From contig CAZSFZ010000002.1 in assembly GCA_964606385.1 (NCBI GenBank), positions 35,119 to 99,118 on the forward strand: a stretch of DNA of 64,000 bases. Direction: 5' to 3'. Both the position numbers and the translations under genes were made by a program. The DNA is from an uncultured bacterium. GTDB lineage: Bacteria > Omnitrophota > Omnitrophia > Omnitrophales > Aquincolibacteriaceae. Shown here in pieces: positions 3,705-51,445 of the stretch (the stretch's first letter is position 1; each line of letters starts with the position of its first letter). A model generated the notes under the pieces. The model saw only the letters and a list, made by a program, of their open reading frames with translations. It had not been told where the DNA came from and did not search any database.

Positions 3705-3794
3705 GTTCAGCTCCTATGAAAAGACACCACGGCCCTGGACCGTTACGGAAGGCGGCTTCAGGATCTCATGCCGCCAAGGGCCCTGCGCGCCCGA

Positions 3795-5249
3795 TCAATA
3801 CTTGTAATGTTCGGGCTTGAAGGGACCTTCGACAGGAACGTCAAGGTATTCGGACTGTTTTTTCGTGAGTTTCGTGAGCCGGGCACCCAATTTATCAAGA
3901 TGCAACCGGGCCACTTCCTCATCGAGCTTCTTATCCAGGCGGTAGACCCCGGGTTTTTTCGGGTTCAGGGCCAGATCGATCTGCGCGAGCGTCTGGTTCG
4001 TGAAAGAATTCGACATCACGAAACTCGGATGCCCCGTGGCACAGCCCAGGTTCACAAGACGGCCTTCGGCGAGCAGGATGATCGAATGTCCGTCCGGAAA
4101 TACGTACTTGTCGACCTGCGGCTTGATATTGATCCGCTTGATCCCCGGCCATTTCTGGAGCTTGGAAACTTCGATCTCATTGTCAAAATGTCCGATGTTG
4201 CAGACGATCGCCTCGTCTTTCATCCTGGACATGTGTTCAGCCGTGATCACGTCGATATTGCCTGTCGTGGTCACGTAAATATCGCCGATATCAAGCACAT
4301 CCTCGAGGCGCGCGACCTGGTAGCCGGCCATGGACGCCTGAAGGGCGCAGATCGGATCGATCTCCGTCACGATCACGCGGGCTTTAAGTTCCGCCAGGGA
4401 CTGGGCGCTGCCTTTTCCAACATCGCCATAGCCCAAGACCACCGCGACTTTCCCGGCGATCATGACGTCCGTCGCGCGTTTGATACCGTCCACAAGGGAC
4501 TCGCGGCAGCCGTAAAGATTATCGAACTTGGATTTGGTCACGGAATCGTTCACGTTGATCGCGGGAACCAGGAGTTTTCCCTGTTCCTGCATTTTGTAAA
4601 GACGGTGAACGCCCGTCGTCGTTTCTTCCGAAACGCCTTCCCATTCCTTCACAACACCATGCCACTTCTTGGGTTCGCTCTTGAGGACTTGCTTGAGCAG
4701 CTTGAAAAGCTCGATCTCATCCTGCGTCTCGACTTTCTTATCAAGGAGCTTCGGGTTCTTTTCCGCATCATAACCCAGATGGATCATGAGCGTCGCATCC
4801 CCGCCGTCATCCACGATCAGGTTCGGCCCCTTGCCCCCCGGAAAATTGAGCGCCTGGAGCGTGCACCACCAGTAATCGGCGAGCGTCTCCCCTTTCCACG
4901 CGAAGACCGGAATGCCTTTGGCCGCAATGGCCGCGGCAGCATGGTCCTGGGTGGAGAAGATATTGCAGGAACACCACCGCACGTCCGCCCCGAGTTCCAC
5001 GAGCGTCTCGATCAGGACCGCGGTCTGGATGGTCATGTGGAGACTGCCCATGATCCGCTTGCCATTGAGCGGCTTTTTCGGCCCGTACTTCGCGCGGGTC
5101 GCCATGAGCCCCGGCATTTCTTTCTCGGCCATAACGATCTCTTTACGGCCCCAATCAGCCAGCGAGAGATCGGCGACCTTGAAGTCCTGCGTTTTCTTGG
5201 AAGAAACCTTCTTTTTCATGGTTTTCTCTTTTTTCTCCAGCGTTAGCAT
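3795..5249 (-). CDS. ahcY: Adenosylhomocysteinase (S-adenosyl-L-homocysteine hydrolase)
   Basis: The N-terminus reads [17 protein letters not shown], followed by a central NAD-binding region ([10 protein letters not shown]) and a [13 protein letters not shown]-terminus. Length is 484 aa. An AAGGTAGGGG SD lies upstream of the ATG at 5249. Confidence 0.9.
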
Positions 5250-15266: not shown

Positions 15267-15339
15267 TTTTAACGAAGTTGAAATTGGGGCAATCCCAACT
15301 GCCCTTCATGTAAAAAAATCTAACGTTGGGATAGGCGGG

Positions 15340-16311
15340 TTAAACCCGGCCCGCCCTCATCAGGTCCTGAACGTCCAGTAGGCCCACAACGCGGCGGTTC
15401 CTGTCCACCACAGGTAATTCGTCGATCCGGAGGGATTCCATGATATGGAACGCCTCTTCCGCGAGTTTTTCCCTCTGGATATACCGGGGCTTGAGCGTGG
15501 CAAATTCCGCGACAGGACGATTCAGGATCTTTTCCCCGCCTGTTTTAAGATGACGCCTGAGATCCCCGTCGGTAAATACGCCCACCAATTTCCCATCCCG
15601 GTCAACGATCGTGCAGCTTCCCGCCCGGGAAGCGGTGATCTTAAGAAGCGCCTGACGCACCGGGGTTTTGATCCCCACGAGCGGATTGGCTTTACCCGTG
15701 CGCATGATCTCCGAAACTTTCAGCAATCGCTTACCGAGACTTCCCGCCGGATGAAGCTCCGCGAAATCCTCGGAGCGGAATCCTTTTTTCTTGAGAAGCG
15801 CGAACGCGAGCGCGTCTCCTATGGCAAGCGAGGCGGTTGTCGAAGCCGAAGGTGCCAGGTTCAACGGACAGGCCTCGCGCCGCACGCCGAGGTCCAATAC
15901 CTTATCCGCATTTTTTCCGAGCGTGGAGGACGGGACGCTCGTCAGCGCGACAAGCTTCACGCCTTTCTTCTTCAAAAGAGGGATCAGCCTCACGATCTCT
16001 TCGCTTTCGCCGCTTTGCGAGATCGCGATTACAAGGTCCTTGGACGTGACCATCCCGAAATCACCGTGCACCGCTTCCGCCGGATGGAGGAAGAACGTGG
16101 GAGTTCCCGTCGAGGCCATGGTCGCGGCGATCTTGCGGGCGATAAAACCGGGCTTCCCCATCCCCGTCAGGATCACGCGGCCCCTGCAATCCGCCAGCCA
16201 TTGCACCACGGTCTCGAAATCCCTGCCGATCCTGGAACGGAGGCGCGAGATCGCGAGCGCTTCCATCCGGAGCACTTCTTTGGCGAGCTTGACGACGTTC
16301 GATTTTTTCAT
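15340..16311 (-). CDS. kdsD: Arabinose-5-phosphate isomerase (KpsF/GutQ family; SIS + CBS domains)
   Basis: The SIS motif ISQSGESEE is followed by tandem CBS domains. The start was trimmed to MKKSNVV at 16311, 2 nt after the kdsA stop. Confidence 0.85.
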   Translation of the reverse strand: MKKSNVVKLAKEVLRMEALAISRLRSRIGRDFETVVQWLADCRGRVILTGMGKPGFIARKIAATMASTGTPTFFLHPAEAVHGDFGMVTSKDLVIAISQSGESEEIVRLIPLLKKKGVKLVALTSVPSSTLGKNADKVLDLGVRREACPLNLAPSASTTASLAIGDALAFALLKKKGFRSEDFAELHPAGSLGKRLLKVSEIMRTGKANPLVGIKTPVRQALLKITASRAGSCTIVDRDGKLVGVFTDGDLRRHLKTGGEKILNRPVAEFATLKPRYIQREKLAEEAFHIMESLRIDELPVVDRNRRVVGLLDVQDLMRAGRV

Positions 16312-16313
16312 GT

Positions 16314-17147
16314 TCAGGACTCTCCGCCGGCGCATTTTTTAAAGGCGAGCAGTTTTTGAAGCAAGGGTTTCAGCTTGGAAAACGCGAGCGCATTGGGCCC
16401 GTCCGAAAGCGCCCGGGCCGGATTTTCATGGATCTCCATGAACACGGCATCCGCTCCGGCCGCCACGGCGCAGCACGCGAGCGTGGGAATGAATTCAGAC
16501 ATGCCGCCGGACGCCGTTCCCTTCCCGCCGGGCACCTGGACCGAATGCGTGGCGTCATAGACTACGGGATATCCGAAGCCCCGCATGATCGGGATCGCGC
16601 GAAAATCATTCACGAGATTATTGTAGCCAAAACTCGTGCCGCGTTCGGTGAGAAGGATCTTCTTGCACCCAACCTCCTCCAGCTTATCGATCATATTCTT
16701 CGCTTCCCAAGGAGAGAGAAATTGCCCCTTTTTCACATTCACGATCTTCCCCGTCGCCGCGGCCGCAAAGAGAAGGTCGGTCTGACGGCAAAGGAACGCG
16801 GGGACCTGCAGGATATCCGCGACTTCGGCCACGGGCGCCGCCTGTTCGGGCGTGTGGAAATCCGTCAACACGGGCAGCTTGAACTCCTTTTTGACCCGCG
16901 CGAGGATCTTTAATCCCTTCTCGATGCCCGGGCCTCGGAACGAACGGATCGACGAACGGTTAGCCTTGTCAAAACTTGCCTTAAATACATAAGGCACTTT
17001 GAGTGAACGCGCGACACCCGAGATCTTTTCCGCAAGCCGGAGCGTGCCTTTTTCGTCCTCGATTACGCAGGGCCCGCCGATCAGCACAAGCTTGCGGGGA
17101 TCCCCAAAAACGATTGAACCCAGAGCGACTTTATGCATGGATCTCAT
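16314..17147 (-). CDS. kdsA: 2-dehydro-3-deoxyphosphooctonate aldolase (KDO-8-phosphate synthase)
   Basis: [13 protein letters not shown] and the DATHSVQ.PGG motif are present. Length is 277 aa. Confidence 0.9.
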
Positions 17148-18831
17148 TCATCTCCTGTGCTGGTGTTTCCGGTTTTGCGAGCTCCGGTTTTTGGTGGACG
17201 GGAACTTCCAAACCGCATTCTTCCTGAAAAGCGAGGGCGTGACGAATGAACTCCCGGAAAAGCGGGTGCGCCCGGTCCGGCTTGGATTTGAATTCGGGAT
17301 GGAACTGAACGGCGAGAAACCACGGATGATCTTCCAGTTCGATCATTTCGACGAGCTTCCCATTCGGAGAGATCCCCGAAAGCTTCATGCCGGCCTTCTG
17401 GAATTTTTCGCGGTATTCGTTGTTGAATTCATAACGGTGACGGTGACGTTCCGAGATCTCTTCCGCCTTGTAAGCCTTGTAAGCCAACGTTTCTTTCTTG
17501 ACCTGGCAAGGATACGCGCCCAAACGCATCGTGCCTCCCAAGTCCTTCACATTCTGCTGCTCCTCGAGAAGGCTGATCACCGGGAAAAGCGTCTTTTTGT
17601 TGAATTCGGTGGAGTGCGCGCCTTTCATGTCCAGGACATTGCGGGCAAACTCGATCGCCGCGCACTGCATCCCGAGACAGATGCCGAAAAAAGGGACTTT
17701 CTTCTCGCGGCAATACTGGATCGCCTTGAGCTTGCCTTCGATCCCCCGGCTGCCGAACCCTCCGGGCACGAGAACCCCCGAAACCCCTCTGAGCTGCTGT
17801 TCCATCGAACGGCTCGTCTCAAGCTTTTCGGAATTGATCCTCTTGATCACAACACCCGAGTCGTTGGCGATCCCGCCATGCTTCAAAGATTCATAAATGG
17901 ACTTGTAAGCATCCTGCAACTCGATGTACTTCCCCACCACGGCGATCTTGACCATGTGTTTGGGATGGAGCGTGATATCGACCACGCTCTTTTTCCACTC
18001 GTGAAGACTTCCTGACTTGTATTCGATCTTGAGCTTCTGACAGATGACCTTGTCGATCCCCTCTTGTTTGAAGGTAAGGGGGCATTCATAGATCGAAGCC
18101 ACATCCCGCGCCTCGATCACGGCCTCGGGCTCCACGTTGCAAAAAAGCGCGATCTTGTCCTTCATCGCCTGGTCGATCTTTTTTTCCGTGCGGCAGATCA
18201 GAATGTCCGGCTGGATCCCGATCTCGCGAAGCGTTCCGACGCTGTGTTGCGTGGGCTTCGTCTTAAGTTCCCCCGCGGCCCGGATGTAAGGGACAAGCGT
18301 CAAATGGATGAAAAGGGAGTTTTCGCGGCCGACTTCATGACGGTATTGGCGGGCCGCTTCGAGGAACGGCAGGGACTCAATATCGCCGGCCGTGCCTCCG
18401 ACTTCCGAAATGACAATATCGTAGCGCTTGTTGCGGGAAACGTTCCGGATGCGCTCCTTGATCTCGTTGGTGATATGCGGCACGACCTGCACGGTCCCGC
18501 CCAAATAATCCCCGCGGCGTTCTTTGGTGATCACGCTGTAATAGACCTGACCACTCGTGACGTTGTTCTCGCGCCCCAACGTCGTATGCGTAAAGCGTTC
18601 GTAATGGCCGAGATCGAGGTCCGTTTCGGCGCCGTCATCGGTGACATACACCTCGCCGTGCTGGAAAGGATTCATGGTCCCCGGATCGACGTTGAGGTAA
18701 GGGTCCAGCTTCTGGATCGCGACCTTGAGGCCCTTCGCTTCCAGGATCTTCGCGATCGACGCGGACGCGATCCCCTTTCCAAGGGATGAAACCACACCTC
18801 CAGTCACAAAAATATGTTTCGGCATATTCAA
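17131..18831 (-). CDS. pyrG: CTP synthase
   Basis: [17 protein letters not shown] is followed by a C-terminal glutamine amidotransferase domain (GICLGMQ). Length is 566 aa. Confidence 0.95.
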
Positions 18832-19655
18832 TTCCTCACGGGGTTGACCTGCAATCGTTTTTCGACCTCACGCAGGTCCTCTTCCGTGTCCACGCTGATG
18901 AAATCATACGCCGTTTCGATCACGCGAATGGAACGGCCCCTTTCGAGGACCCTTAATTGTTCCAACTTTTCGATGTTTTCCAGAACGCCCGGTTTCCAGT
19001 TCACGAACTCCAGAAGAAAATCGCGGCGATACCCGTAAACCCCCAGATGCTTTAAAAAGCTGAAGGCGCCATCCTGCTTGCCCTGGCTTCCATTTTCTTT
19101 TCTCAAAGGATTGCCAGGACTAGCCCGATTAACCTTTGAATCTTGCAATGGAGAATTGGGCTTGCCTTGAAAAAAGGGGATCGTCGCCCGCGAAAAATAA
19201 AGCGCGTTCCCGTCCTCGCCGCAAACCACTTTAACAACATTCGGATTCTCATAGCTTTCCCGGTCGGTCATGCGCACGGCCAGGGTCAGCATGTCCATAT
19301 TTTTCGATCTTTCGAAAATGCCGACCATCTCATCCAGCGCTTTCGGGTCCACGAGCGGCTGGTCGCCCTGGATATTGATCACCAGCTCCTGCTTGAAATG
19401 TCCCATCACTTCCGCGATGCGCGACGTGCCGTTCGGATGGTCCTTGCGGGTCATAAAAGCCTTGCCCCCGAACCCTTCCACGCATTGCTGGATGCGGGCG
19501 TCATCGGTCGCGACGATCACATCCTCGAGTTTTTTCGCCTGCCGGGCGCGCTCCCAAACATGCTGGATCATGGGTTTCCCGGCGATCACACGCAGGATCT
19601 TCTCGGACAATCTTGTGGAGCCTAAACGCGCGGGAATAACGCCAAGGGCTTTCAT
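18828..19655 (-). CDS. kdsB: 3-deoxy-manno-octulosonate cytidylyltransferase (CMP-KDO synthetase), with a ~25-aa low-complexity insertion
   Basis: The N-terminus reads [16 protein letters not shown] and the protein contains [12 protein letters not shown] and EQLRVLE. An extra [35 protein letters not shown] segment lies between conserved blocks. Confidence 0.85.
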
Positions 19656-20671
19656 GCTTTTCGGATCGCTTCCTCAAGTTCTTCGGGGGTCACCGTCGCG
19701 GTCCCGAGCTTCCCGACCACGATCCCGGCGGCAAGATTAGCGAGTTTCGCGGCTTCCTGCATTTTAGCGCCTGCCGCCAGGGCAAGTGCGAGCGTCGCGA
19801 TCACTGTATCCCCGGCACCTGAAACGTCATAAACTTCGCGCGCGGCGGTCGGAACCCGGGTCAGCTTTTTATTTTTCTCAAAAAGAGCCATGCCGTCCTC
19901 GCCCAGCGTGATCAACACGGAATCAAGTTTCAATTTTTTCATGAGTCCCCAACCCACCGTTTCCAATTCCGGGGCTTTGTAGCAGGCTCCATGCGTCCGC
20001 TCATAGCCGGTGTAAGCCTCGCTGCGGTTCGGGGTAATGCAGGTCACGCCCTGATAATAAACAAAGTTCTTTTCTTTGGGGTCCACCAGCACGGGTTTTT
20101 TGAACTTCTTGGCAAGACGAACGATCTCTTTCAACAGGAAGGGCTGCATCACACCTTTGCCGTAATCCTCCAGGATCACGACATCCATGCGTTTGATATT
20201 CTCACGCACGAATTTGAGGATCTTGAGAAGATCCGTTTTGGAAACATCGTCCGTTTTCTCACGGTCAAATCGGACCACCTGCTGGGAATGTGCGATCACG
20301 CGGGTCTTAAGGGACGTCGGACGTTCCGGGTCATAAACGATCCCGCCGATTTCGATCCCTTGCTGGCGCATCGCCTTGAGCAGCATGCGTCCGTAGAGAT
20401 CACGGCCCACGACCCCGCAGGGACAGACCTGCCCCTGGAGAGAACGGATGTTGTTCGCCACATTGAGCGATCCCCCCGGCATGAAGGATTCCCGCTCAAC
20501 CTTGACCACCGGAACCGGCGCTTCGGGGGAAATACGCTTCACGCTTCCCCATACAAATTGGTCCAGGATGAAATCACCGATCACGAGCACACGGCCTCCT
20601 TGAAACCTTTCCAGGATCTCGAGAAAGCGTCTTTTTTCCAGACTGCTCAACGGTAAGGATACGGTCTTCAT
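19652..20671 (-). CDS. hldE: D-beta-D-heptose 7-phosphate kinase (HldE domain I / RfaE1-like PfkB kinase, kinase-only)
   Basis: VLVIGDFILDQFVWGSVKRISPEAPVPVVKV matches the HldE N-terminus and the C-terminal motif is GAGDTV. It is 339 aa and has no adenylyltransferase domain. A GGGGGA SD lies upstream. Confidence 0.85.
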   Translation of the reverse strand: MKTVSLPLSSLEKRRFLEILERFQGGRVLVIGDFILDQFVWGSVKRISPEAPVPVVKVERESFMPGGSLNVANNIRSLQGQVCPCGVVGRDLYGRMLLKAMRQQGIEIGGIVYDPERPTSLKTRVIAHSQQVVRFDREKTDDVSKTDLLKILKFVRENIKRMDVVILEDYGKGVMQPFLLKEIVRLAKKFKKPVLVDPKEKNFVYYQGVTCITPNRSEAYTGYERTHGACYKAPELETVGWGLMKKLKLDSVLITLGEDGMALFEKNKKLTRVPTAAREVYDVSGAGDTVIATLALALAAGAKMQEAAKLANLAAGIVVGKLGTATVTPEELEEAIRKA

Positions 20672-20688
20672 AGTCCCCCTAAATAACG

Positions 20689-20722
20689 AGGACAGGCTTA
20701 TTTTTCTACAAGAGCCTGTCCT
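20689..20722 (-). promoter_or_regulatory. 5'-UTR hairpin between the predicted TSS and the hldE SD
   Basis: A 9-bp perfect stem (aggacaggc/gcctgtcct) encloses a 16-nt loop. It lies downstream of the TAGAAT box and upstream of the SD. Confidence 0.4.
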
Positions 20723-20747
20723 CTTCCATCTTGAATTTTAGGACTGC

Positions 20748-20776
20748 ATTCTAGCATCAGCGCTGAGCAGTGTCAA
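20748..20776 (-). promoter_or_regulatory. Near-consensus sigma70 promoter TTGACA-17-TAGAAT driving hldE-kdsB-pyrG-kdsA-kdsD
   Basis: The minus strand reads TTGACActgctcagcgctgatgcTAGAAT. The -35 lies at 20771-20776 and the -10 at 20748-20753. Confidence 0.6.
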
Positions 20777-20789
20777 TTAAAGGAATTTT

Positions 20790-20820
20790 TTATAACCTAT
20801 TGCTATATAACAGGTTATAA
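20790..20820. promoter_or_regulatory. Palindrome TTATAACCT-N13-AGGTTATAA, centred ~38 bp upstream of the -35 of the hldE promoter
   Basis: A perfect 9-bp inverted repeat flanks a 13-bp AT-rich centre. No U-tract follows on either strand. It lies just downstream of the FmdB gene. Confidence 0.4.
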
Positions 20821-20840
20821 ATAAATTTAACCCCAAAATC

Positions 20841-21113
20841 TTATTTTTTCTTAGTCTCGCAGGATGAACAGTCCCCGGAGCAACCGGAAGAAGAGGGCTT
20901 GTCCTTTTGGGCGGCTTCCTTGTAGCCTTTGGAGCGATAGTCCGTCTGGTAGAAACCGCTTCCCTTAAAGAGTACCCCGGCCCCGCCCGAGATCATGCGC
21001 TCCGCCTTGGATTTCCCGCACTTGGGGCACTTCTTGATGGCTTTTTCCGTCATGGACTGATATTTCTCGAATCGGTGGCCGCAGGCCCCGCATTCGTATT
21101 CATAGGTCGGCAT
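20841..21113 (-). CDS. FmdB-family zinc-ribbon protein
   Basis: MPTYEYECGACGHRFE...CPKCG gives a CxxC-X17-CxxC arrangement. The tail is Cys-rich (CSGDCSSC). Length is 90 aa. Confidence 0.75.
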   Translation of the reverse strand: MPTYEYECGACGHRFEKYQSMTEKAIKKCPKCGKSKAERMISGGAGVLFKGSGFYQTDYRSKGYKEAAQKDKPSSSGCSGDCSSCETKKK

Positions 21114-21136
21114 GGATCATTTTCCTTTCAAAAAGC

Positions 21137-22651
21137 TTACGCTTCAAAAAGACTGACGGTGGAAAAATCAGTATCGCTTGTAACATTGATCCCGAGACGC
21201 TTGAGCCCCTTGTCGTCTCCGGAGGTCGGAATGTGCGTCATATGCGCCTCACATCCGTTCAGCTCCTTTAACTTCGACATGGCCGCCTCCGCGGAAGGGT
21301 TGGTCGCGGCGCTGATACTCAGAGCCACCAGGATCTCGTCCAAATTGAGGCTCACGGCGTGGGCCCCCATGATGTCCTGCTTCATACGGCCGATGGATTC
21401 GATCACGCCGAGCGACAAGAGATGGATCTGGTCGGGGATCCCGGCGAGTTTCTTCACGGCATTCAGCACAAGGCTGGATGCGGCATGCATGAGCGGCGTG
21501 TTCTTCCCCGTCACGATCGACCCGTCATGAAGCTCGAGCGCGGCGCCGCAATAGATCCCCTTATTCCCTTCTCCGAGACGCTGGAGCTCCTGCGCGACTT
21601 CGCGCGCGGGAAGCACGACGCGCCGGTCCTCAATCTTCGCGTCGAGCTCGCGCATCAAAAGCTCGGTCCGCTGCGCGGCCTCTTTCTCCACGAATCCCAT
21701 CACGTACTCGCAGGAATAACGGAAAAAACGCGAGATCACTTCCTGCGTCGCGGCCTTGCGGACCGCCTCATCGTCCACGATGCCGAAACCGGCGCAGTTG
21801 ACCCCCATATCCGTGGGCGATTTATAGATCGAACGTTTCCCCATGATCTTTTTCAGGATGCGCTGAAGCACCGGGAAGATCTCGAGATCGCGGTTGTAAT
21901 TGACCGTGGTCTTTTTGTAAGCCTCCAGATGGAACGAATCGATCATGTTGATATCGCCCAGGTCCGCCGTCGCCGCCTCATAAGCCACGTTCACGGGATG
22001 CTTGAGCGGCAAGTTCCAGATCGGAAAGGTCTCGAATTTCGAGTACCCGCTTTCGAGACCGCGTGTGTGATCATGATAAAGCTGTGAGAGGCAGGTCGCG
22101 AGCTTTCCGCTCCCCGGCCCGGGCCCCGTCACGATCACGATCGGATTTTTGGTTTGGATGTACTCGTTCGCCCCGTAACCTTCGGGACTCACGATGAGCT
22201 CCACATCCGTGGGATACCCTTTTGTGAAACGGTGGGTACAAACGCGGATCCCGCGGCGCTCCAGCTTGTTCTTGAAGATCTTGGCGGCCGGCTGTTCGTT
22301 AAAACGGGTGATCACGACGGCTGTGACCGATAACCCCCAGGTCTTGAGGTCATCGATCATTTTGAAGGCATCCGCATCATACGTGATGCCGAAATCCGCG
22401 CGCAGTTTCCGCCGCTCGATATCCCCGGCATGAATACAAAGGATGATATCGATCTGGTCTTTCAGCTTTTGCAGCAACCGCATCTTGACGTTCGGATCGT
22501 ATCCCGGAAGGACGCGCGCCGCGTGATGATCGAAAAGAAGTTTCCCACCGAATTCGATATAAAGTTTGTTGCTGTATTTTTTGACCCGTTTCAGGATCGC
22601 TTCCGATTGTTCCTTAAGGTATTTATCGTTATCAAAACCGGCCTTCTTCAT
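21137..22651 (-). CDS. DUF1846/UPF0371-family protein with a P-loop (Walker A) motif
   Basis: IVIVTGPGPGSGKLAT is a Walker A motif. The start was trimmed to the ATG at 22651, preceded by an AGGGGAGGGG SD. Length is 504 aa. Confidence 0.7.
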   Translation of the reverse strand: MKKAGFDNDKYLKEQSEAILKRVKKYSNKLYIEFGGKLLFDHHAARVLPGYDPNVKMRLLQKLKDQIDIILCIHAGDIERRKLRADFGITYDADAFKMIDDLKTWGLSVTAVVITRFNEQPAAKIFKNKLERRGIRVCTHRFTKGYPTDVELIVSPEGYGANEYIQTKNPIVIVTGPGPGSGKLATCLSQLYHDHTRGLESGYSKFETFPIWNLPLKHPVNVAYEAATADLGDINMIDSFHLEAYKKTTVNYNRDLEIFPVLQRILKKIMGKRSIYKSPTDMGVNCAGFGIVDDEAVRKAATQEVISRFFRYSCEYVMGFVEKEAAQRTELLMRELDAKIEDRRVVLPAREVAQELQRLGEGNKGIYCGAALELHDGSIVTGKNTPLMHAASSLVLNAVKKLAGIPDQIHLLSLGVIESIGRMKQDIMGAHAVSLNLDEILVALSISAATNPSAEAAMSKLKELNGCEAHMTHIPTSGDDKGLKRLGINVTSDTDFSTVSLFEA

Positions 22652-34903: not shown

Positions 34904-35782
34904 TCACGCCCTCGGATGCGCCGCCGCGTAAGCATCCTTCAAGCGCTGGGTCGTCACGTGCGTGTAGATCTGTGTGGTCGAAAGATTCGCGTGCCCCAAA
35001 AGCTCCTGAACACTCCGAAGGTCCGCCCCGCGATCCAGCATGTGCGTCGCGAACGAATGGCGGAACGTGTGAGGCGAGATCTCTTTCCCGAGCCCCGTCC
35101 GTTTCACATATTTCAGGATCATCCTCCGGACGCTCCGGTCCGTGAGACGGCTCCCGATCCGGCTGATGAACAAAGGTTTCTTGATCGCGTTCGCGGCTTC
35201 GCGCGGAGCCTTCATGTCCAGGTAAGCGCGCAAAACGTTCAGAGCCGTTTGTCCCACGGGCACGATCCGTTCCTTTTTCCCTTTACCTCGCACCCGGACA
35301 AGCCCCTGAAAAAAATCGAGATCATCATGATTGAGCCCCGCGAGTTCGCTCACGCGAAGACCGGAGCTATAGAGCATCTCGAGGATCGCCTTGTCGCGCT
35401 TCTCCTCCCAATTGTTTCTGGAGGGGGCTTCCAGAAGTTTCGTGATTTCATCGGGATTCATGAACGAAGGAAGTTTCTTTTCCTTCTTGGGGGTCGCAAT
35501 CCCCGCCGCGGGGTTCTGCGTCAGGATGTTTTCTCGCACCAGGTATTTGAAGAATGAACGGAGGCAGGCGAGTTTGCGGGAAATGGAGCTTTTGCTGTAA
35601 TCTCGGGTCTTCAAGAACGCCAAAAAAGAGCGGATGTCTAGGTACGTCAGGTCCTTGAAATCCTTTTCGGCGATGAATTTCCCGAATTCCCGGAGGTCGA
35701 TCCCGTAGTTCTTGACCGTGTGCTCGGAAGCGCCCTTTTCGGTCGCGAGAAAACCCAGGAAGTCTTCGACGTTTTTACTCAT
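34904..35782 (-). CDS. Tyrosine recombinase XerC/XerD family
   Basis: The C-terminal catalytic region reads HTFRHSFATHMLDRGADLRSVQELLGHANLSTTQIYTHV. Length is 292 aa. Confidence 0.85.
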   Translation of the reverse strand: MSKNVEDFLGFLATEKGASEHTVKNYGIDLREFGKFIAEKDFKDLTYLDIRSFLAFLKTRDYSKSSISRKLACLRSFFKYLVRENILTQNPAAGIATPKKEKKLPSFMNPDEITKLLEAPSRNNWEEKRDKAILEMLYSSGLRVSELAGLNHDDLDFFQGLVRVRGKGKKERIVPVGQTALNVLRAYLDMKAPREAANAIKKPLFISRIGSRLTDRSVRRMILKYVKRTGLGKEISPHTFRHSFATHMLDRGADLRSVQELLGHANLSTTQIYTHVTTQRLKDAYAAAHPRA

Positions 35783-38484: not shown

Positions 38485-38522
38485 AAAAAAAAGGGGCAAG
38501 CGATTTAACGCTTGCCCCTTTT
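38485..38522 (-). terminator. Rho-independent terminator after the RDD gene (bidirectional hairpin)
   Basis: The stem ggggcaagcg/cgcttgcccc (10 bp, 6-nt loop) is followed on the minus strand by 8 U. On the plus strand 4 T follow. Confidence 0.6.
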
Positions 38523-38543
38523 CCAGTAAAAACCAGGTTTTAA

Positions 38544-39069: not shown

Positions 39070-40224
39070 TTAACACGGCAAAGCGTATCTCCCGTCCTGG
39101 TTCCTTCGGACCTTTTTTGTCAATTCCAGCCTCAGGAGGAGGGATGGCAATTTCGAGGATTCAAGACCCGTGAATTCAAGGATCTCCTCCTGGGCAAGTG
39201 GGCCCTCCTCTTTCAAGAGTTCTTCGATCACACAGCCTTCTTCAACGGACAAAGATACTTCCTCTTTTTCCGGAGAGGTAAAAAAACGCGCCTCTGGGTC
39301 GACAGGATCAGAAGTCCCGTGGAGAACGGGCTCCGCTTTGTTTTCGAGCTTTAACCGGTCCGCCAACGCCAAAAGGATATCCTCCGCTGACTCCGCAAGA
39401 CAGGCGCCCTCCTTGATCAGTTGATGCGTTCCACGGGAAGTGAGCTGGTCTACGGGTCCCGGAAGCGCGAATACTTCCCGCCCTTGCTCGACAGCCTGGT
39501 GCGCCGTGATCAGGGATCCGCTCCGCGAGTGGGCTTCCACCACGAAAGTCGCGTACGAGAGACCGGAAAGGATCCGGTTCCGTCGCGGAAAATTTTCCGG
39601 CAGGGGCGGTGTGCCAAGCGGATATTCGCTCAACACGGTTCCCCGTTCCGAAATCCTTCGAGAAAGGTCCTCGTGTTCCTTGGGATAGACAATGTCGAGG
39701 CCGCATCCTAGAACCGCGATCGTACGGCCGTAGGACACCTGCAACGCCGCCTCATGCGCGATCTGGTCGATCCCGCGCGCGAGACCTGAAACGATCGTAA
39801 GGCCCCTTGCCGCCAATTCCTGAGCGAATTTTTTCGCCTGCATCCGGCCGTAGAAACTTGGGTGCCGCGTCCCCACGATCGCAATGGCATTCCGGTCATT
39901 TTCAACAAGCGTTCCTTTTTTATAAAGGAGAAGCGGAGGATCCGGGATCTCTTTGAGGCCTGCCGGATAATCCGGGTCCGTGTATAGAAGAAAACCGATC
40001 CCCTTTTGGGCGCAGAGCTCCGCTTCTTTTTTCGGATCAAAAGAGCCGCCCTCTTTTATCGATACCGGAAGCTCTTTGAGAAGATTCTCTGCCTCCATAA
40101 GCGTGATGATCTCCCGGGCACACTTCCCTTCCGAGAGCCATATCGCCGCTTTTCGTCTTCCGTCGATCCGGAGCCTGTTCAGAATTAAAAAAGCTTTTAT
40201 TTCGTCCGCCTCTGCGTTGGTCAT
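39070..40224 (-). CDS. dprA: DNA processing protein DprA (Smf)
   Basis: The Rossmann core contains AIVGTRHPSFYG, VSGLARGID and HSRSGSLITA. The C-terminus is winged-helix-like. Length is 384 aa. Confidence 0.85.
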   Translation of the reverse strand: MTNAEADEIKAFLILNRLRIDGRRKAAIWLSEGKCAREIITLMEAENLLKELPVSIKEGGSFDPKKEAELCAQKGIGFLLYTDPDYPAGLKEIPDPPLLLYKKGTLVENDRNAIAIVGTRHPSFYGRMQAKKFAQELAARGLTIVSGLARGIDQIAHEAALQVSYGRTIAVLGCGLDIVYPKEHEDLSRRISERGTVLSEYPLGTPPLPENFPRRNRILSGLSYATFVVEAHSRSGSLITAHQAVEQGREVFALPGPVDQLTSRGTHQLIKEGACLAESAEDILLALADRLKLENKAEPVLHGTSDPVDPEARFFTSPEKEEVSLSVEEGCVIEELLKEEGPLAQEEILEFTGLESSKLPSLLLRLELTKKVRRNQDGRYALPC

Positions 40225-40733
40225 GGATGAAATCCGATCAGGGGCTTTTTCCGAACAGGAGGATTTGCCAGCCTCCGAATGGCCTTATAGAGAACCCGAA
40301 AATTAGCGTCATAATTTATCCGCATTTCCTCGATCTTCCGAGATAGATCTTTATGAGTCGCAAGGATCTCTCTTAATTTTACAAACGCTCGGACCACCTG
40401 CAGACTCATCTGAACCGCTAGCTTTGTATTGAGCACGCTCGCCAGCATCATGGCACCATATTCTGTAAAAGCATAAGGAAGCGCTGTTGAAAATTTGAGC
40501 TGCCGGAGGTGGTCGCAATTTGCGACCACCTCCTTCTTTTCTTTTTGAGTCAAACGGAACATAAAGTCCTGCGGAAAACGATCTTTATTCCTGCGCACTT
40601 GTTCATTGAGCCGCTTGGTGCTAACCCCATAAAGACCCGCAAGGTCAGCATCCAACATAACCTTTTGTCCTCGAAGGAATAGGATTGTTCCGAAGATTCT
40701 TTCGAAGGGGATAGGGCTGTTTTGTCTTTTCAT
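40221..40733 (-). CDS. ORF6N-domain (KilA-N-like, phage antirepressor-type) protein
   Basis: RGQKVMLDADLAGLYGVSTKRLNEQVRRNKDRFPQDFMFRLT is the ORF6N signature. The gene is ~45% GC versus ~58% for its neighbours, and an AT-rich 90-bp spacer lies upstream. Confidence 0.7.
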   Translation of the reverse strand: MKRQNSPIPFERIFGTILFLRGQKVMLDADLAGLYGVSTKRLNEQVRRNKDRFPQDFMFRLTQKEKKEVVANCDHLRQLKFSTALPYAFTEYGAMMLASVLNTKLAVQMSLQVVRAFVKLREILATHKDLSRKIEEMRINYDANFRVLYKAIRRLANPPVRKKPLIGFHP

Positions 40734-50294: not shown

Positions 50295-51335
50295 TTAAAC
50301 CGCGAAAAAGTCTTTAACGCCCTTCTTGAATTTTCCCTTCCAGGTCTTCTGATTTTGCGCCACGGTGACCTCCCAGCTTTGCCCCATGGATTCCATCCAG
50401 TCAAAGGCCGCCTTTTTAAATTCCAGATCGTTCGCTTCTTCATCGGTCTTGTATTCCACCAGATGGATCGGATAGCCCTTCTGCTGGAGTTTGTCGAACC
50501 AGGCCTGATTCTTGGCCCGTGCATCGCTATCCGCTTTCAAGGCGACATAGAACGGCACTTGGTCCGCCGCGTCGGAGTGTGGGTCGATCAGCTGATAAAA
50601 AGGCCCATCCCACGCCTGCCCGATCAGCGTGGCAGCCGTGAATTCCTTGGGATATTTGACCGCTAAATAGGCCGCGTAATGAGCGCCGAGGTCCTTGCCG
50701 ACGATATAAACCCTCTTTTTGCTGATCGGAAAACGTTCGATCATATCGTTCTTCAAAGACAACATCCATTCATCCAGCCGGTAGGGCGTGTCCCCTTCCT
50801 TCGGCCAAAGAGAATAGGGCGCCAGAAGGAAAATGCTTTTGCGCTGCGCCAACCCCGTCAGGTATTCGATCTGCTGCTCCGCTTTCGCGTCTTCGGCCGG
50901 GGCGATGATGACGAGCGGATAAGTCCGGTCGGTTTTATAATCCTTCGGCGCGAAAAGAAAAACAGGATATTTGTATCCGCTTACTTCCACCAATCCGGAA
51001 GGATTCGAGGCCGTAAACACCTGGGTTTCCGGCATGTCCCTGGAGGCGTCTTGAGACGCTGCTGTAGCGGGCACTGCCGGCATTAAAGGGGCGACAGCAG
51101 CCGCAACCGGCTGGCTCTCGGAAACCGGCAAAGCCACGCTTTGCGCGGACTGGGCCTCCGCGGCAGCTACCACATCTTCCAGCACCTGTTCTTCTTCCTG
51201 CTGGGGCAAGGATTCATCATAATTGGCCGCGGCTTTTTGCTCTTCCACGGGCGTTAAAGCGCGCACGGAGACGCTCCCCACAAAAAGAAATAATCCTAAA
51301 AAAAAGAAAAAAATACTCTTGCGATAGTTTTCCAT
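50295..51335 (-). CDS. Secreted alpha/beta-hydrolase-fold (esterase-like) protein with a Pro/Ala/Gln-rich linker; catalytic Ser and His apparently not conserved
   Basis: The signal peptide is MENYRKSIFFFFLGLFLFVGSVSVRA, followed by a low-complexity linker. The nucleophile-elbow position reads VGKDLGA (Asp in place of Ser). The C-terminal HLVEYKTDEE lacks the usual GH. An AAGAGG SD lies upstream of ATG 51335. Confidence 0.5.
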   Translation of the reverse strand: MENYRKSIFFFFLGLFLFVGSVSVRALTPVEEQKAAANYDESLPQQEEEQVLEDVVAAAEAQSAQSVALPVSESQPVAAAVAPLMPAVPATAASQDASRDMPETQVFTASNPSGLVEVSGYKYPVFLFAPKDYKTDRTYPLVIIAPAEDAKAEQQIEYLTGLAQRKSIFLLAPYSLWPKEGDTPYRLDEWMLSLKNDMIERFPISKKRVYIVGKDLGAHYAAYLAVKYPKEFTAATLIGQAWDGPFYQLIDPHSDAADQVPFYVALKADSDARAKNQAWFDKLQQKGYPIHLVEYKTDEEANDLEFKKAAFDWMESMGQSWEVTVAQNQKTWKGKFKKGVKDFFAV

Positions 51336-51417
51336 TTGAGACCTCTTGATCTCGTCTGCCCGCACAGGCAGTTGGGGACCTGAATTGACGTAACTTGCTG
51401 GAACAAAAGAGGTTATT

Positions 51418-51445
51418 ATTATATGGATAAGCTCCGGAATGTCAA
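51418..51445 (-). promoter_or_regulatory. Consensus sigma70 promoter TTGACA-16-TATAAT upstream of the secreted hydrolase-like gene
   Basis: The minus strand reads ctgcgTTGACAttccggagcttatccaTATAATaataacc. The -35 lies at 51440-51445 and the -10 at 51418-51423. Confidence 0.6.

Follow-up and report, generated by a model that had tools for sequence, protein, structure and literature searches.

A putative regulated promoter with a conserved dyad and a terminator-like leader hairpin upstream of the Kdo/heptose precursor operon of an Omnitrophota bacterium

Several described systems invite comparison with the locus reported here. At gal of Escherichia coli the GalR operators OE and OI are located at -60.5 and +53.5, respectively, and at lac the cyclic AMP receptor protein (CRP) is centred at -61.5, a position typical of activators; it is common for one regulator to activate from about -60 and to repress from +1. 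A long operator is also known for BirA (bioO, TGTnAAC-N14-16-GTTnACA). On the RNA level, lipopolysaccharide (LPS) and polysaccharide operons can be controlled by leader attenuators and antitermination, for example at waaQ of E. coli (JUMPStart/ops, RfaH) and in LoaP-type leaders. Nearly all that is known of the phylum Omnitrophota comes from metagenome-assembled or single-cell genomes, and its gene regulation is almost undescribed; our literature search found no paper on Omnitrophota promoters, on Omnitrophota gene regulation or on the dyad motif presented below. We analysed a stretch of 64,000 nucleotides from an uncultured member of this phylum (assembly GCA_964606385.1, contig CAZSFZ010000002.1; in the following "the window") and concentrated on the 169-bp intergenic gap at positions 20672-20840, which lies between an FmdB-type gene and the ATG of a heptose kinase gene and carries its features on the minus strand. 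This gap is probably the regulated sigma-70-like promoter of an operon for the supply of 3-deoxy-D-manno-octulosonic acid (Kdo), heptose and cytidine triphosphate (CTP), hldE(kinase)-kdsB-pyrG-kdsA-kdsD.

The comparison with other genomes is based on a scan with the kinase protein, which yielded 52 loci (L numbers below) at one genome per species. Metagenome-assembled or single-cell genomes of Omnitrophota account for 40 of these loci, with 60-94% protein identity, and the non-coding flanks of the hldE loci are not alignable. When anchored on the hexamer TTGACA, 35 of 37 Omnitrophota upstream regions nevertheless align gap-free over approximately 90 nt.

The core promoter consists, on the minus strand, of the -35 hexamer TTGACA (20771-20776), a 17-nt spacer and the extended -10 element TGCTAGAAT (20748-20756), that is TG (20756-20755), one base and TAGAAT (20753-20748). 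With 11 of 12 consensus positions and the additional TG it bears out the near-consensus promoter proposed in an earlier first-pass annotation of this DNA, and the conservation pattern among the relatives agrees with it. In the whole window, four sites with at least 11 of 12 consensus positions were observed compared to 0.19 expected, all on the gene-bearing strand. The full TTGACA is kept in 35 of the 37 aligned relatives (exceptions are L019 with TTGGACA, a 1-nt insertion, and L033 with TTGACT), TTG-AC is invariant in all 37, and a C follows the hexamer. For the -10 region the conserved pattern is TGnTAnnAT, where TG, T1, A2, A5 and T6 are held and positions 3-4 are free. The hexamer positions carry 1.4-1.7 bits, the positions of the 17-nt spacer 0.1-0.4 bits. 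Since the contacts (hexamers and TG) are conserved, while the spacer is fixed in length but free in sequence, the predicted hldE promoter is of the housekeeping-sigma type, a conserved sigma-70-type promoter with extended -10. Standard sigma-70 geometry (7 ± 2 nt past the -10) places the transcription start at about 20741 (20739-20743).

Directly upstream of the -35 there is a pyrimidine-rich block (20777-20786, minus strand, about -45 to -36; ATTCCTTTAA in the window, family consensus TTTCCTTTCA), which is conserved as well as the arms of the dyad described below (0.6-1.4 bits per position). A matrix comprising the block and the -35 scores 26 at the hldE promoter, and its next best score in the window is 10. 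The block could be a docking site of the alpha-subunit of RNA polymerase or the site of a second factor. A general promoter feature of this genome was considered and rejected, since the matrix does not exceed 10 elsewhere and the block is absent from three other near-consensus promoters. Two further promoter-like sites with 11 of 12 consensus positions, both on the minus strand and without a dyad, precede the enolase gene (53369, TGGACA-16-TATAAT, TG present) and metK (6619, TTGACA-17-CATAAT). Relatives with short leaders (L006, L011, L013-L018, L022-L026 and L040) share a conserved CCTTC at columns +33 to +37 of the anchored alignment, around the predicted start, and their leaders of approximately 30 nt possess a weak or no obvious Shine-Dalgarno sequence.

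A dyad lies upstream of the block. The perfect 9-bp inverted repeat reported by the first-pass annotation, TTATAACCT-N13-AGGTTATAA, is indeed present on the minus strand at 20820..20790 (31 bp) and extends to 16 nt at 88%. Its centre, however, precedes the first T of TTGACA by 29 nt and not by about 38 bp, which places it at approximately -64 from the predicted start. In shuffles of the 169-bp region itself, a perfect inverted repeat of at least 9 bp has a P of about 0.013-0.016. What is conserved across 35-37 relatives is not the 9-bp arms but the unit TAAC-N3-TT-N7-AA-N3-GTTA with mirror positions around column -29, and the arms in the window are best described as a very symmetric copy of this 25-bp dyad, whose core TAAC-CTG-TT-ATATAGC-AA-TAG-GTTA occupies 20793-20817 (centre 20805). 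The outer arms are two helical turns apart. The gap from GTTA to TTGACA is fixed at 16 nt in nearly all relatives (17 in L031; L019 and L024 each have one 1-nt gap elsewhere in the alignment), and the dyad stays with the promoter whether the gene upstream encodes FmdB, DUF1846 or a polysaccharide deacetylase. In L032-L034 and L037 the dyad has decayed, yet the core promoter is still strong, with an extended -10 and TTGACA in three of them and TTGACT in L033.

The conservation of the dyad does not reflect base pairing. Among 37 sequences and 16 possible arm pairs, 65.3% are paired compared to 65.1% in column shuffles, of which 225 of 500 equal or exceed the observed value; other covariation measures agree with this count, and the variable N3 positions do not compensate each other. 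Since the symmetry is explained by conserved base identities without covariation, the dyad should be a site recognised by a protein and not an RNA or DNA stem. The earlier interpretation as a site for a dimeric transcription factor is supported, and we regard the dyad as the putative operator of a dimeric protein whose gene would lie beyond the 64-kb window.

The core pattern is also rare. At up to one mismatch, 0.04 matches are expected per 64 kb; the window contains the hldE site without mismatch and a second site at 51391 with one. The 9-N13-9 palindrome itself has no second match in the window at up to three mismatches (0 expected), and no second operator above 8 bits was found near the hldE promoter in the window. 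Our search of the genome itself covered the window and 10 kb beyond its edge, and these 10 kb past the left edge (L061) contain no further dyad site. In 432 kb of fetched loci there are 37 core matches with at most one mismatch, namely 30 hldE promoters, six hydrolase promoters and one leader (L035), and no stray match. Hence the palindrome, for which the first-pass annotation had considered that it might be unique and unconserved, is neither: approximately 35 relatives keep the dyad and a second copy exists in the window. Two relatives have an extra dyad downstream of the hldE promoter (L029, 3887-3911, about +34; L035, 3964-3988, about +39), which together with the -64 site gives a two-operator layout like that of gal. 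A dif/Xer recombination site was considered as well, the window encoding a XerC/D-like recombinase at 34904-35782, and rejected, since there are two copies of the dyad in the window and each keeps a fixed phase to a promoter.

The second site, TAAC-CTC-TT-TTGTTCC-AG-CAA-GTTA in minus-strand reading (51391-51415), belongs to the promoter of a gene for a secreted alpha/beta-hydrolase (50295-51338, minus strand). This promoter, TTGACA-16-TATAAT (51418-51445, minus strand), matches all 12 consensus positions. With the matrix derived from the hldE sites, 51389-51417 scores 20.1 and the next best match in the window 12.9; one of 100 Markov-null windows reached 20.1. We compared the orthologous regions of eight relatives whose hydrolases are 56-85% identical. 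All eight keep promoter and dyad, but not the spacer DNA between the preceding divIC-like gene and the -35. With the matrix built from hldE sites alone, the sites of the relatives reach 20-27 bits; as at hldE, they retain TAAC, GTTA and the inner A/T pair, and N3 varies. In all nine sequences the dyad starts 2 nt past the -10 and covers the predicted start site (approximately -4 to +21 in the window). Both sites are found on one contig in four genomes (L003/L056, L004/L057, L014/L055 and L009/L058). The conservation at fixed distance from the -35 and the second dyad on another promoter support the regulated expression that had been suggested for the Kdo/heptose operon, and the two promoters would form a small regulon of one putative regulator, as we infer from the shared motif. 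The hydrolase has a signal-like N-terminus followed by a long Ala/Pro/Gln-rich linker, is of the polyhydroxybutyrate (PHB)-esterase type and carries G-K-D-L-G where alpha/beta-hydrolases normally have the GxSxG nucleophile elbow.

TAAC-N3-TT-N7-AA-N3-GTTA is not known to match any described operator. The dyad shares with bioO the length, the outer half-sites approximately two helical turns apart and a (T)AAC...GTT(A) core, and there is even a likeness in the second target, since one source gives the hydrolase the generic label pimeloyl-acyl carrier protein methyl ester carboxylesterase. However, the dyad lacks the TGT/ACA ends, with T/C-rich columns next to TAAC instead, and its inner TT/AA is not a BirA feature. 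Moreover, the targets are LPS-precursor genes and not biotin genes, and the hydrolase is secreted, of the PHB-esterase type and has GKDLG instead of GxSxG. By this comparison the dyad is not a BirA site, although it resembles one. In regard to layout, the hldE promoter shares with gal and lac a dyad site that precedes the -35 by one to two turns and keeps its phase to it, as well as sequence between site and -35 where the C-terminal domain of the alpha-subunit docks. The downstream operator of gal is matched in L029 and L035 but not at hldE in the window, and the core promoter of lac, unlike that of hldE, is not near-consensus.

Between the predicted start and hldE the leader contains a hairpin (20688-20723, minus strand) with a perfect stem of 11 bp (GAGGACAGGCU/AGCCUGUCCUC) and a 14-nt loop, in which GAGGACAGGCT (20723-20713) pairs with AGCCTGTCCTC (20698-20688), including seven G-C pairs. 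The first-pass annotation had given a 9-bp stem, which proved too short, but was right about the hairpin and the Shine-Dalgarno sequence behind it. The predicted folding energy is -21.6 kcal/mol (z = -6.3), and a perfect repeat of at least 11 bp in the region has a P of about 0.001-0.002 in shuffles. A U-rich tract, GUUAUUU (20681-20687, minus strand), lies directly 3' of the hairpin (the window's tail GUUAUUUAG past the stem has five U in nine), followed by the Shine-Dalgarno sequence AGGGGGA (20674-20680, minus strand; AGAGGGAC in relatives), CU (2 nt) and the ATG at 20671.

A comparison of this hairpin across relatives, as had been proposed, revealed that it is conserved in the closest clade alone. 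The window has a single copy of the exact stem GGACAGGC...GCCUGUCC, and eight close relatives have it at the orthologous leader position; L008 and L012 have it with one or two C-to-U changes, which gives ten closest relatives with the hairpin. More distant relatives have no hairpin and leaders of approximately 30 nt from the same promoter. In the alignment fold, nine core stem pairs never break and the sole changes are C-to-U, which give G-U pairs on the sense strand. Since these would be A-C mismatches on the other strand, the structure should act in the mRNA. The loops of the relatives differ in length (13-22 nt) and sequence. The U-run reads CUUUUUU in six of ten relatives and CCUUUUU in L005 and L009, and it is interrupted in L001, L010 and L012; the ribosome-binding site follows it directly in most relatives and after approximately 7-10 nt in L003, L004 and L027. 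In L005 and L007 there are 55-90 nt without recognisable promoter between hairpin and hldE, so that transcription must read through the hairpin. A loose terminator census with ViennaRNA gave 252 matches and was too permissive; the stricter stem-based scan used instead found canonical hairpins with T-run elsewhere in the genome, for example at 38487-38524 and after kdsD.

Several other identities of the leader hairpin were considered and rejected. A dispersed repeat of the repetitive extragenic palindromic (REP) or miniature inverted-repeat transposable element (MITE) type would not fit the single copy in the window and its occurrence at the orthologous site alone in the relatives. An open reading frame (ORF) of seven codons, ATG GAA GAG GAC AGG CUC UUG UAG, runs into the stem, but the relatives lack the ATG, which speaks against a leader peptide. 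For the RfaH/ops element GGCGGTAGnnT (GGCGGTAG) no match with at most one mismatch exists in 20672-20840. A scan of 20400-21200 against Rfam 15 with E-values up to 10 gave only sub-threshold chance hits of the microRNA type (17-19 bits compared to gathering thresholds of 53-79).

Some leaders contain further symmetric elements. In L003, L004 and L027 a perfect palindrome, ATAATTC-N-GAATTAT, lies between start and hairpin (about +10 to +25) and is weak in the window (AAATTCAAGAT). L009 has an insertion of approximately 100 nt between promoter and hairpin (about 3800-3900) with a 13-bp perfect palindrome CTGTAGGGCACAT/ATGTGCCCTACGG. L049 from Aminicenantes has three copies of AAAAAAGGGACAG(G/T)G at 3740-3830, the last of which forms GGGGACAGGC...GCCTGTCCCC and is followed by TTTTTT. 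This 8-nt stem is the same as in the hldE leader hairpin of Omnitrophota and lies upstream of the hldE promoter of L049 itself; the likeness may be a coincidence or a shared motif.

How could these elements work together? In the mechanism that we propose, both dyads would be bound by the same dimeric protein, with its gene located beyond the 64 kb. At the hydrolase promoter the operator lies over the start site, so that the bound protein could only repress, by occlusion. At hldE it would act on RNA polymerase from approximately -64, via the alpha-subunit and the UP-like block or via looping; a stereospecific contact with the polymerase is suggested by the strictly kept distance of 16 nt together with the conservation of the -45 to -36 block. 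We lean, with some reserve, to a negative modulation of hldE by contact inhibition or looping, because the core promoter is near-consensus, also in the relatives with a decayed dyad, and because L029 and L035 carry downstream operators at about +34 and +39. In the closest clade, the leader hairpin and its U-tract ahead of the ribosome-binding site would then damp the output of a strong promoter. Some observations weigh against this interpretation. The centre at -64 misses the classical class-I positions by approximately 2.5 bp, and sequence alone does not tell activation from repression. The regulon label rests on two loci, which are both target promoters known so far. The hydrolase leader is conserved well past the dyad, and part of this conservation could serve another function on the RNA level. 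Furthermore, no classical DNA-binding regulator was detected by Pfam among approximately 55 ORFs of the window, helix-turn-helix proteins included, or among the upstream genes of distant relatives. The search yielded only the FmdB-type zinc-ribbon protein and an ORF6N-domain protein (40221-40733), and although the FmdB-type gene adjoins the dyad, it is absent there in many relatives that keep the dyad.

Alternatively, the dyad protein might be a class-I-type activator at hldE, which from about -64 recruits RNA polymerase via the C-terminal domain of the alpha-subunit on the -45 to -36 block and represses the hydrolase gene alone, as a dual regulator. Base rates and geometry favour such an arrangement, since the site lies alone upstream of the -35 at strictly fixed spacing and the conserved block is found where this domain sits in class-I complexes. 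We nevertheless consider it rather unlikely, since a perfect -35 with an extended -10 in nearly all relatives is atypical of activator-dependent promoters, L032-L034 and L037 retain a strong core promoter despite their decayed dyads, and the second operators of L029 and L035 lie downstream of the start, in a repressive position. In addition, -64 is not on the face of -61.5 or -71.5 unless transcription starts 2-3 nt upstream of the prediction. Far less probable still is a role of the palindrome as a hairpin in RNA or DNA, for instance as a terminator or processing signal of the fmdB transcript. It does start 20 nt past the fmdB stop codon and its RNA can fold with 13 pairs (-11.9 kcal/mol, z -4.4), but the stem is A/U-rich, is followed by A's instead of U's and, as stated above, its pairing equals that of column shuffles. 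The distance is kept to the -35 and not to the upstream stop codon, and the dyad persists next to other upstream genes. Moreover, in L006, L011 and L016 a GC-rich terminator of its own lies between the fmdB gene and the dyad, and the second copy lies downstream of a promoter and not after a gene. That all three elements are functionless chance features can practically be dismissed. The gap has 36% G+C in a genome of 56% G+C, and A+T-rich DNA of this kind contains more promoter-like hexamers and A/T palindromes. However, in shuffles of this very region the 9-bp repeat has a P of about 0.015 and the 11-bp repeat one of about 0.001-0.002, and the idea is refuted by the conservation of all three elements among genomes with unalignable flanking non-coding DNA.

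For the leader hairpin the choice is more difficult. We tentatively read it as a partial intrinsic terminator (attenuator) gained by one clade, although this assignment falls short of a firm one. The 14-nt loop is longer than that of typical terminators (3-8 nt), a simple consensus terminator scan did not call the hairpin, and the U-tract of the window is interrupted. No alternative antiterminator structure was found, just a 5-bp alternative of GUCCU with AGGAC, and the alignment fold gives the hairpin alone; in the alignment of relatives there are no true compensatory changes in the main stem either. A somewhat less probable alternative is that the hairpin is instead an element of mRNA stability or translation, which protects the transcript or prevents pairing of the ribosome-binding site, or the terminator of a small RNA of approximately 60 nt from the same promoter. 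The stem is conserved in sequence and not in pairing alone, its 3' arm GUCCUC could otherwise pair with the ribosome-binding site GGGGGAC, and its 5' arm AGGAC resembles GGGAC of the ribosome-binding site; the minimum free energy fold of the leader leaves room for alternative pairings with this site. Ahead of the hairpin there are approximately 26 nt of partly conserved A/U-rich sequence, as in small RNAs. On the other hand, with approximately 19-26 nt to the predicted 5' end the hairpin is too far in for a 5'-terminal protective stem, a pure stability role would not need the conserved U-run, L005 and L007 require read-through over 55-90 nt to hldE without a new promoter, and in relatives that lack the hairpin the same promoter serves hldE directly.

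The attenuator reading brings the leader close to waaQ and LoaP-type leaders, with which it shares a structured 5' leader, here with a putative termination signal, before an envelope-polysaccharide operon. It differs from them in that neither an ops element nor an antiterminator alternative was found and in that the hairpin is confined to one clade; a NusG paralogue was not seen among the genes of the window. A more far-reaching hypothesis would be that the dyad is the operator of an undescribed, Omnitrophota-wide envelope regulator, which couples LPS precursor supply (heptose, Kdo and CTP) to the secreted esterase and further unseen targets, with the clade-specific leader terminator as a second, factor-dependent layer of the antitermination type. 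This would be the first defined regulon of the phylum, but we regard it as speculative and, on the present sequence evidence, not very probable.

How fast outer-membrane LPS is made depends on the control of Kdo, heptose and CTP supply, and therefore a dedicated transcriptional switch at this position would matter for envelope homeostasis. The locus further suggests that Omnitrophota use canonical sigma-70 signals with an extended -10. An operator, a promoter and a leader hairpin represent a textbook kind of mechanism, useful to specialists but not surprising. What is added here are the core motif, its second target, the extra conserved block and the terminator-like hairpin. With two conserved targets, the motif offers a means of searching Omnitrophota genomes for the regulon and of fishing for its regulator.

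Upstream of the gap lies the FmdB-type zinc-ribbon gene (90 aa, 20841-21113, minus strand). Downstream, from the ATG at 20671, follows the operon (15340-20671, minus strand) with overlapping stop and start codons: hldE (19652-20671), kdsB (18828-19655), pyrG (17131-18831), kdsA (16314-17147) and kdsD (15340-16335). The gene order named by the first-pass annotation holds, except that the first gene encodes a kinase-only PfkB-domain protein of 339 aa, which corresponds to the HldE kinase domain (heptose-7-phosphate kinase of the HldE/HldA type). On the 3' side of kdsD there are lpxL-like, lptC/A, lptB, hpf and ptsN genes and then those for HPr and EI, and beyond fmdB those for DUF1846, DUF3108 and four GT9 heptosyltransferases as well as lpxK and waaA. 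With LPS genes on both sides of the gap, the window represents one long LPS gene cluster. Right after the kdsD stop codon there is a terminator-like hairpin with TTTTTTT (approximately 15290-15335, minus strand), and given this hairpin the hldE-kdsD unit may end ahead of the lpxL-like gene.

The gene order from 20671 down to 7193 (minus strand) continues after kdsD with lpxL-like, lptC/A, lptB, hpf, ptsN, CofD/YvcK-like, HPr and EI genes. E. coli has the order kdsD-kdsC-lptC-lptA-lptB-rpoN-hpf-ptsN-rapZ-npr, so that the succession of kdsD, lptC/A, lptB, hpf, ptsN and HPr is the same in both. However, rpoN is missing between lptB and hpf, the promoter and operator described here are unrelated to the promoters of the E. 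coli locus, and hldE, kdsB, pyrG and kdsA are joined to the front of the cluster.

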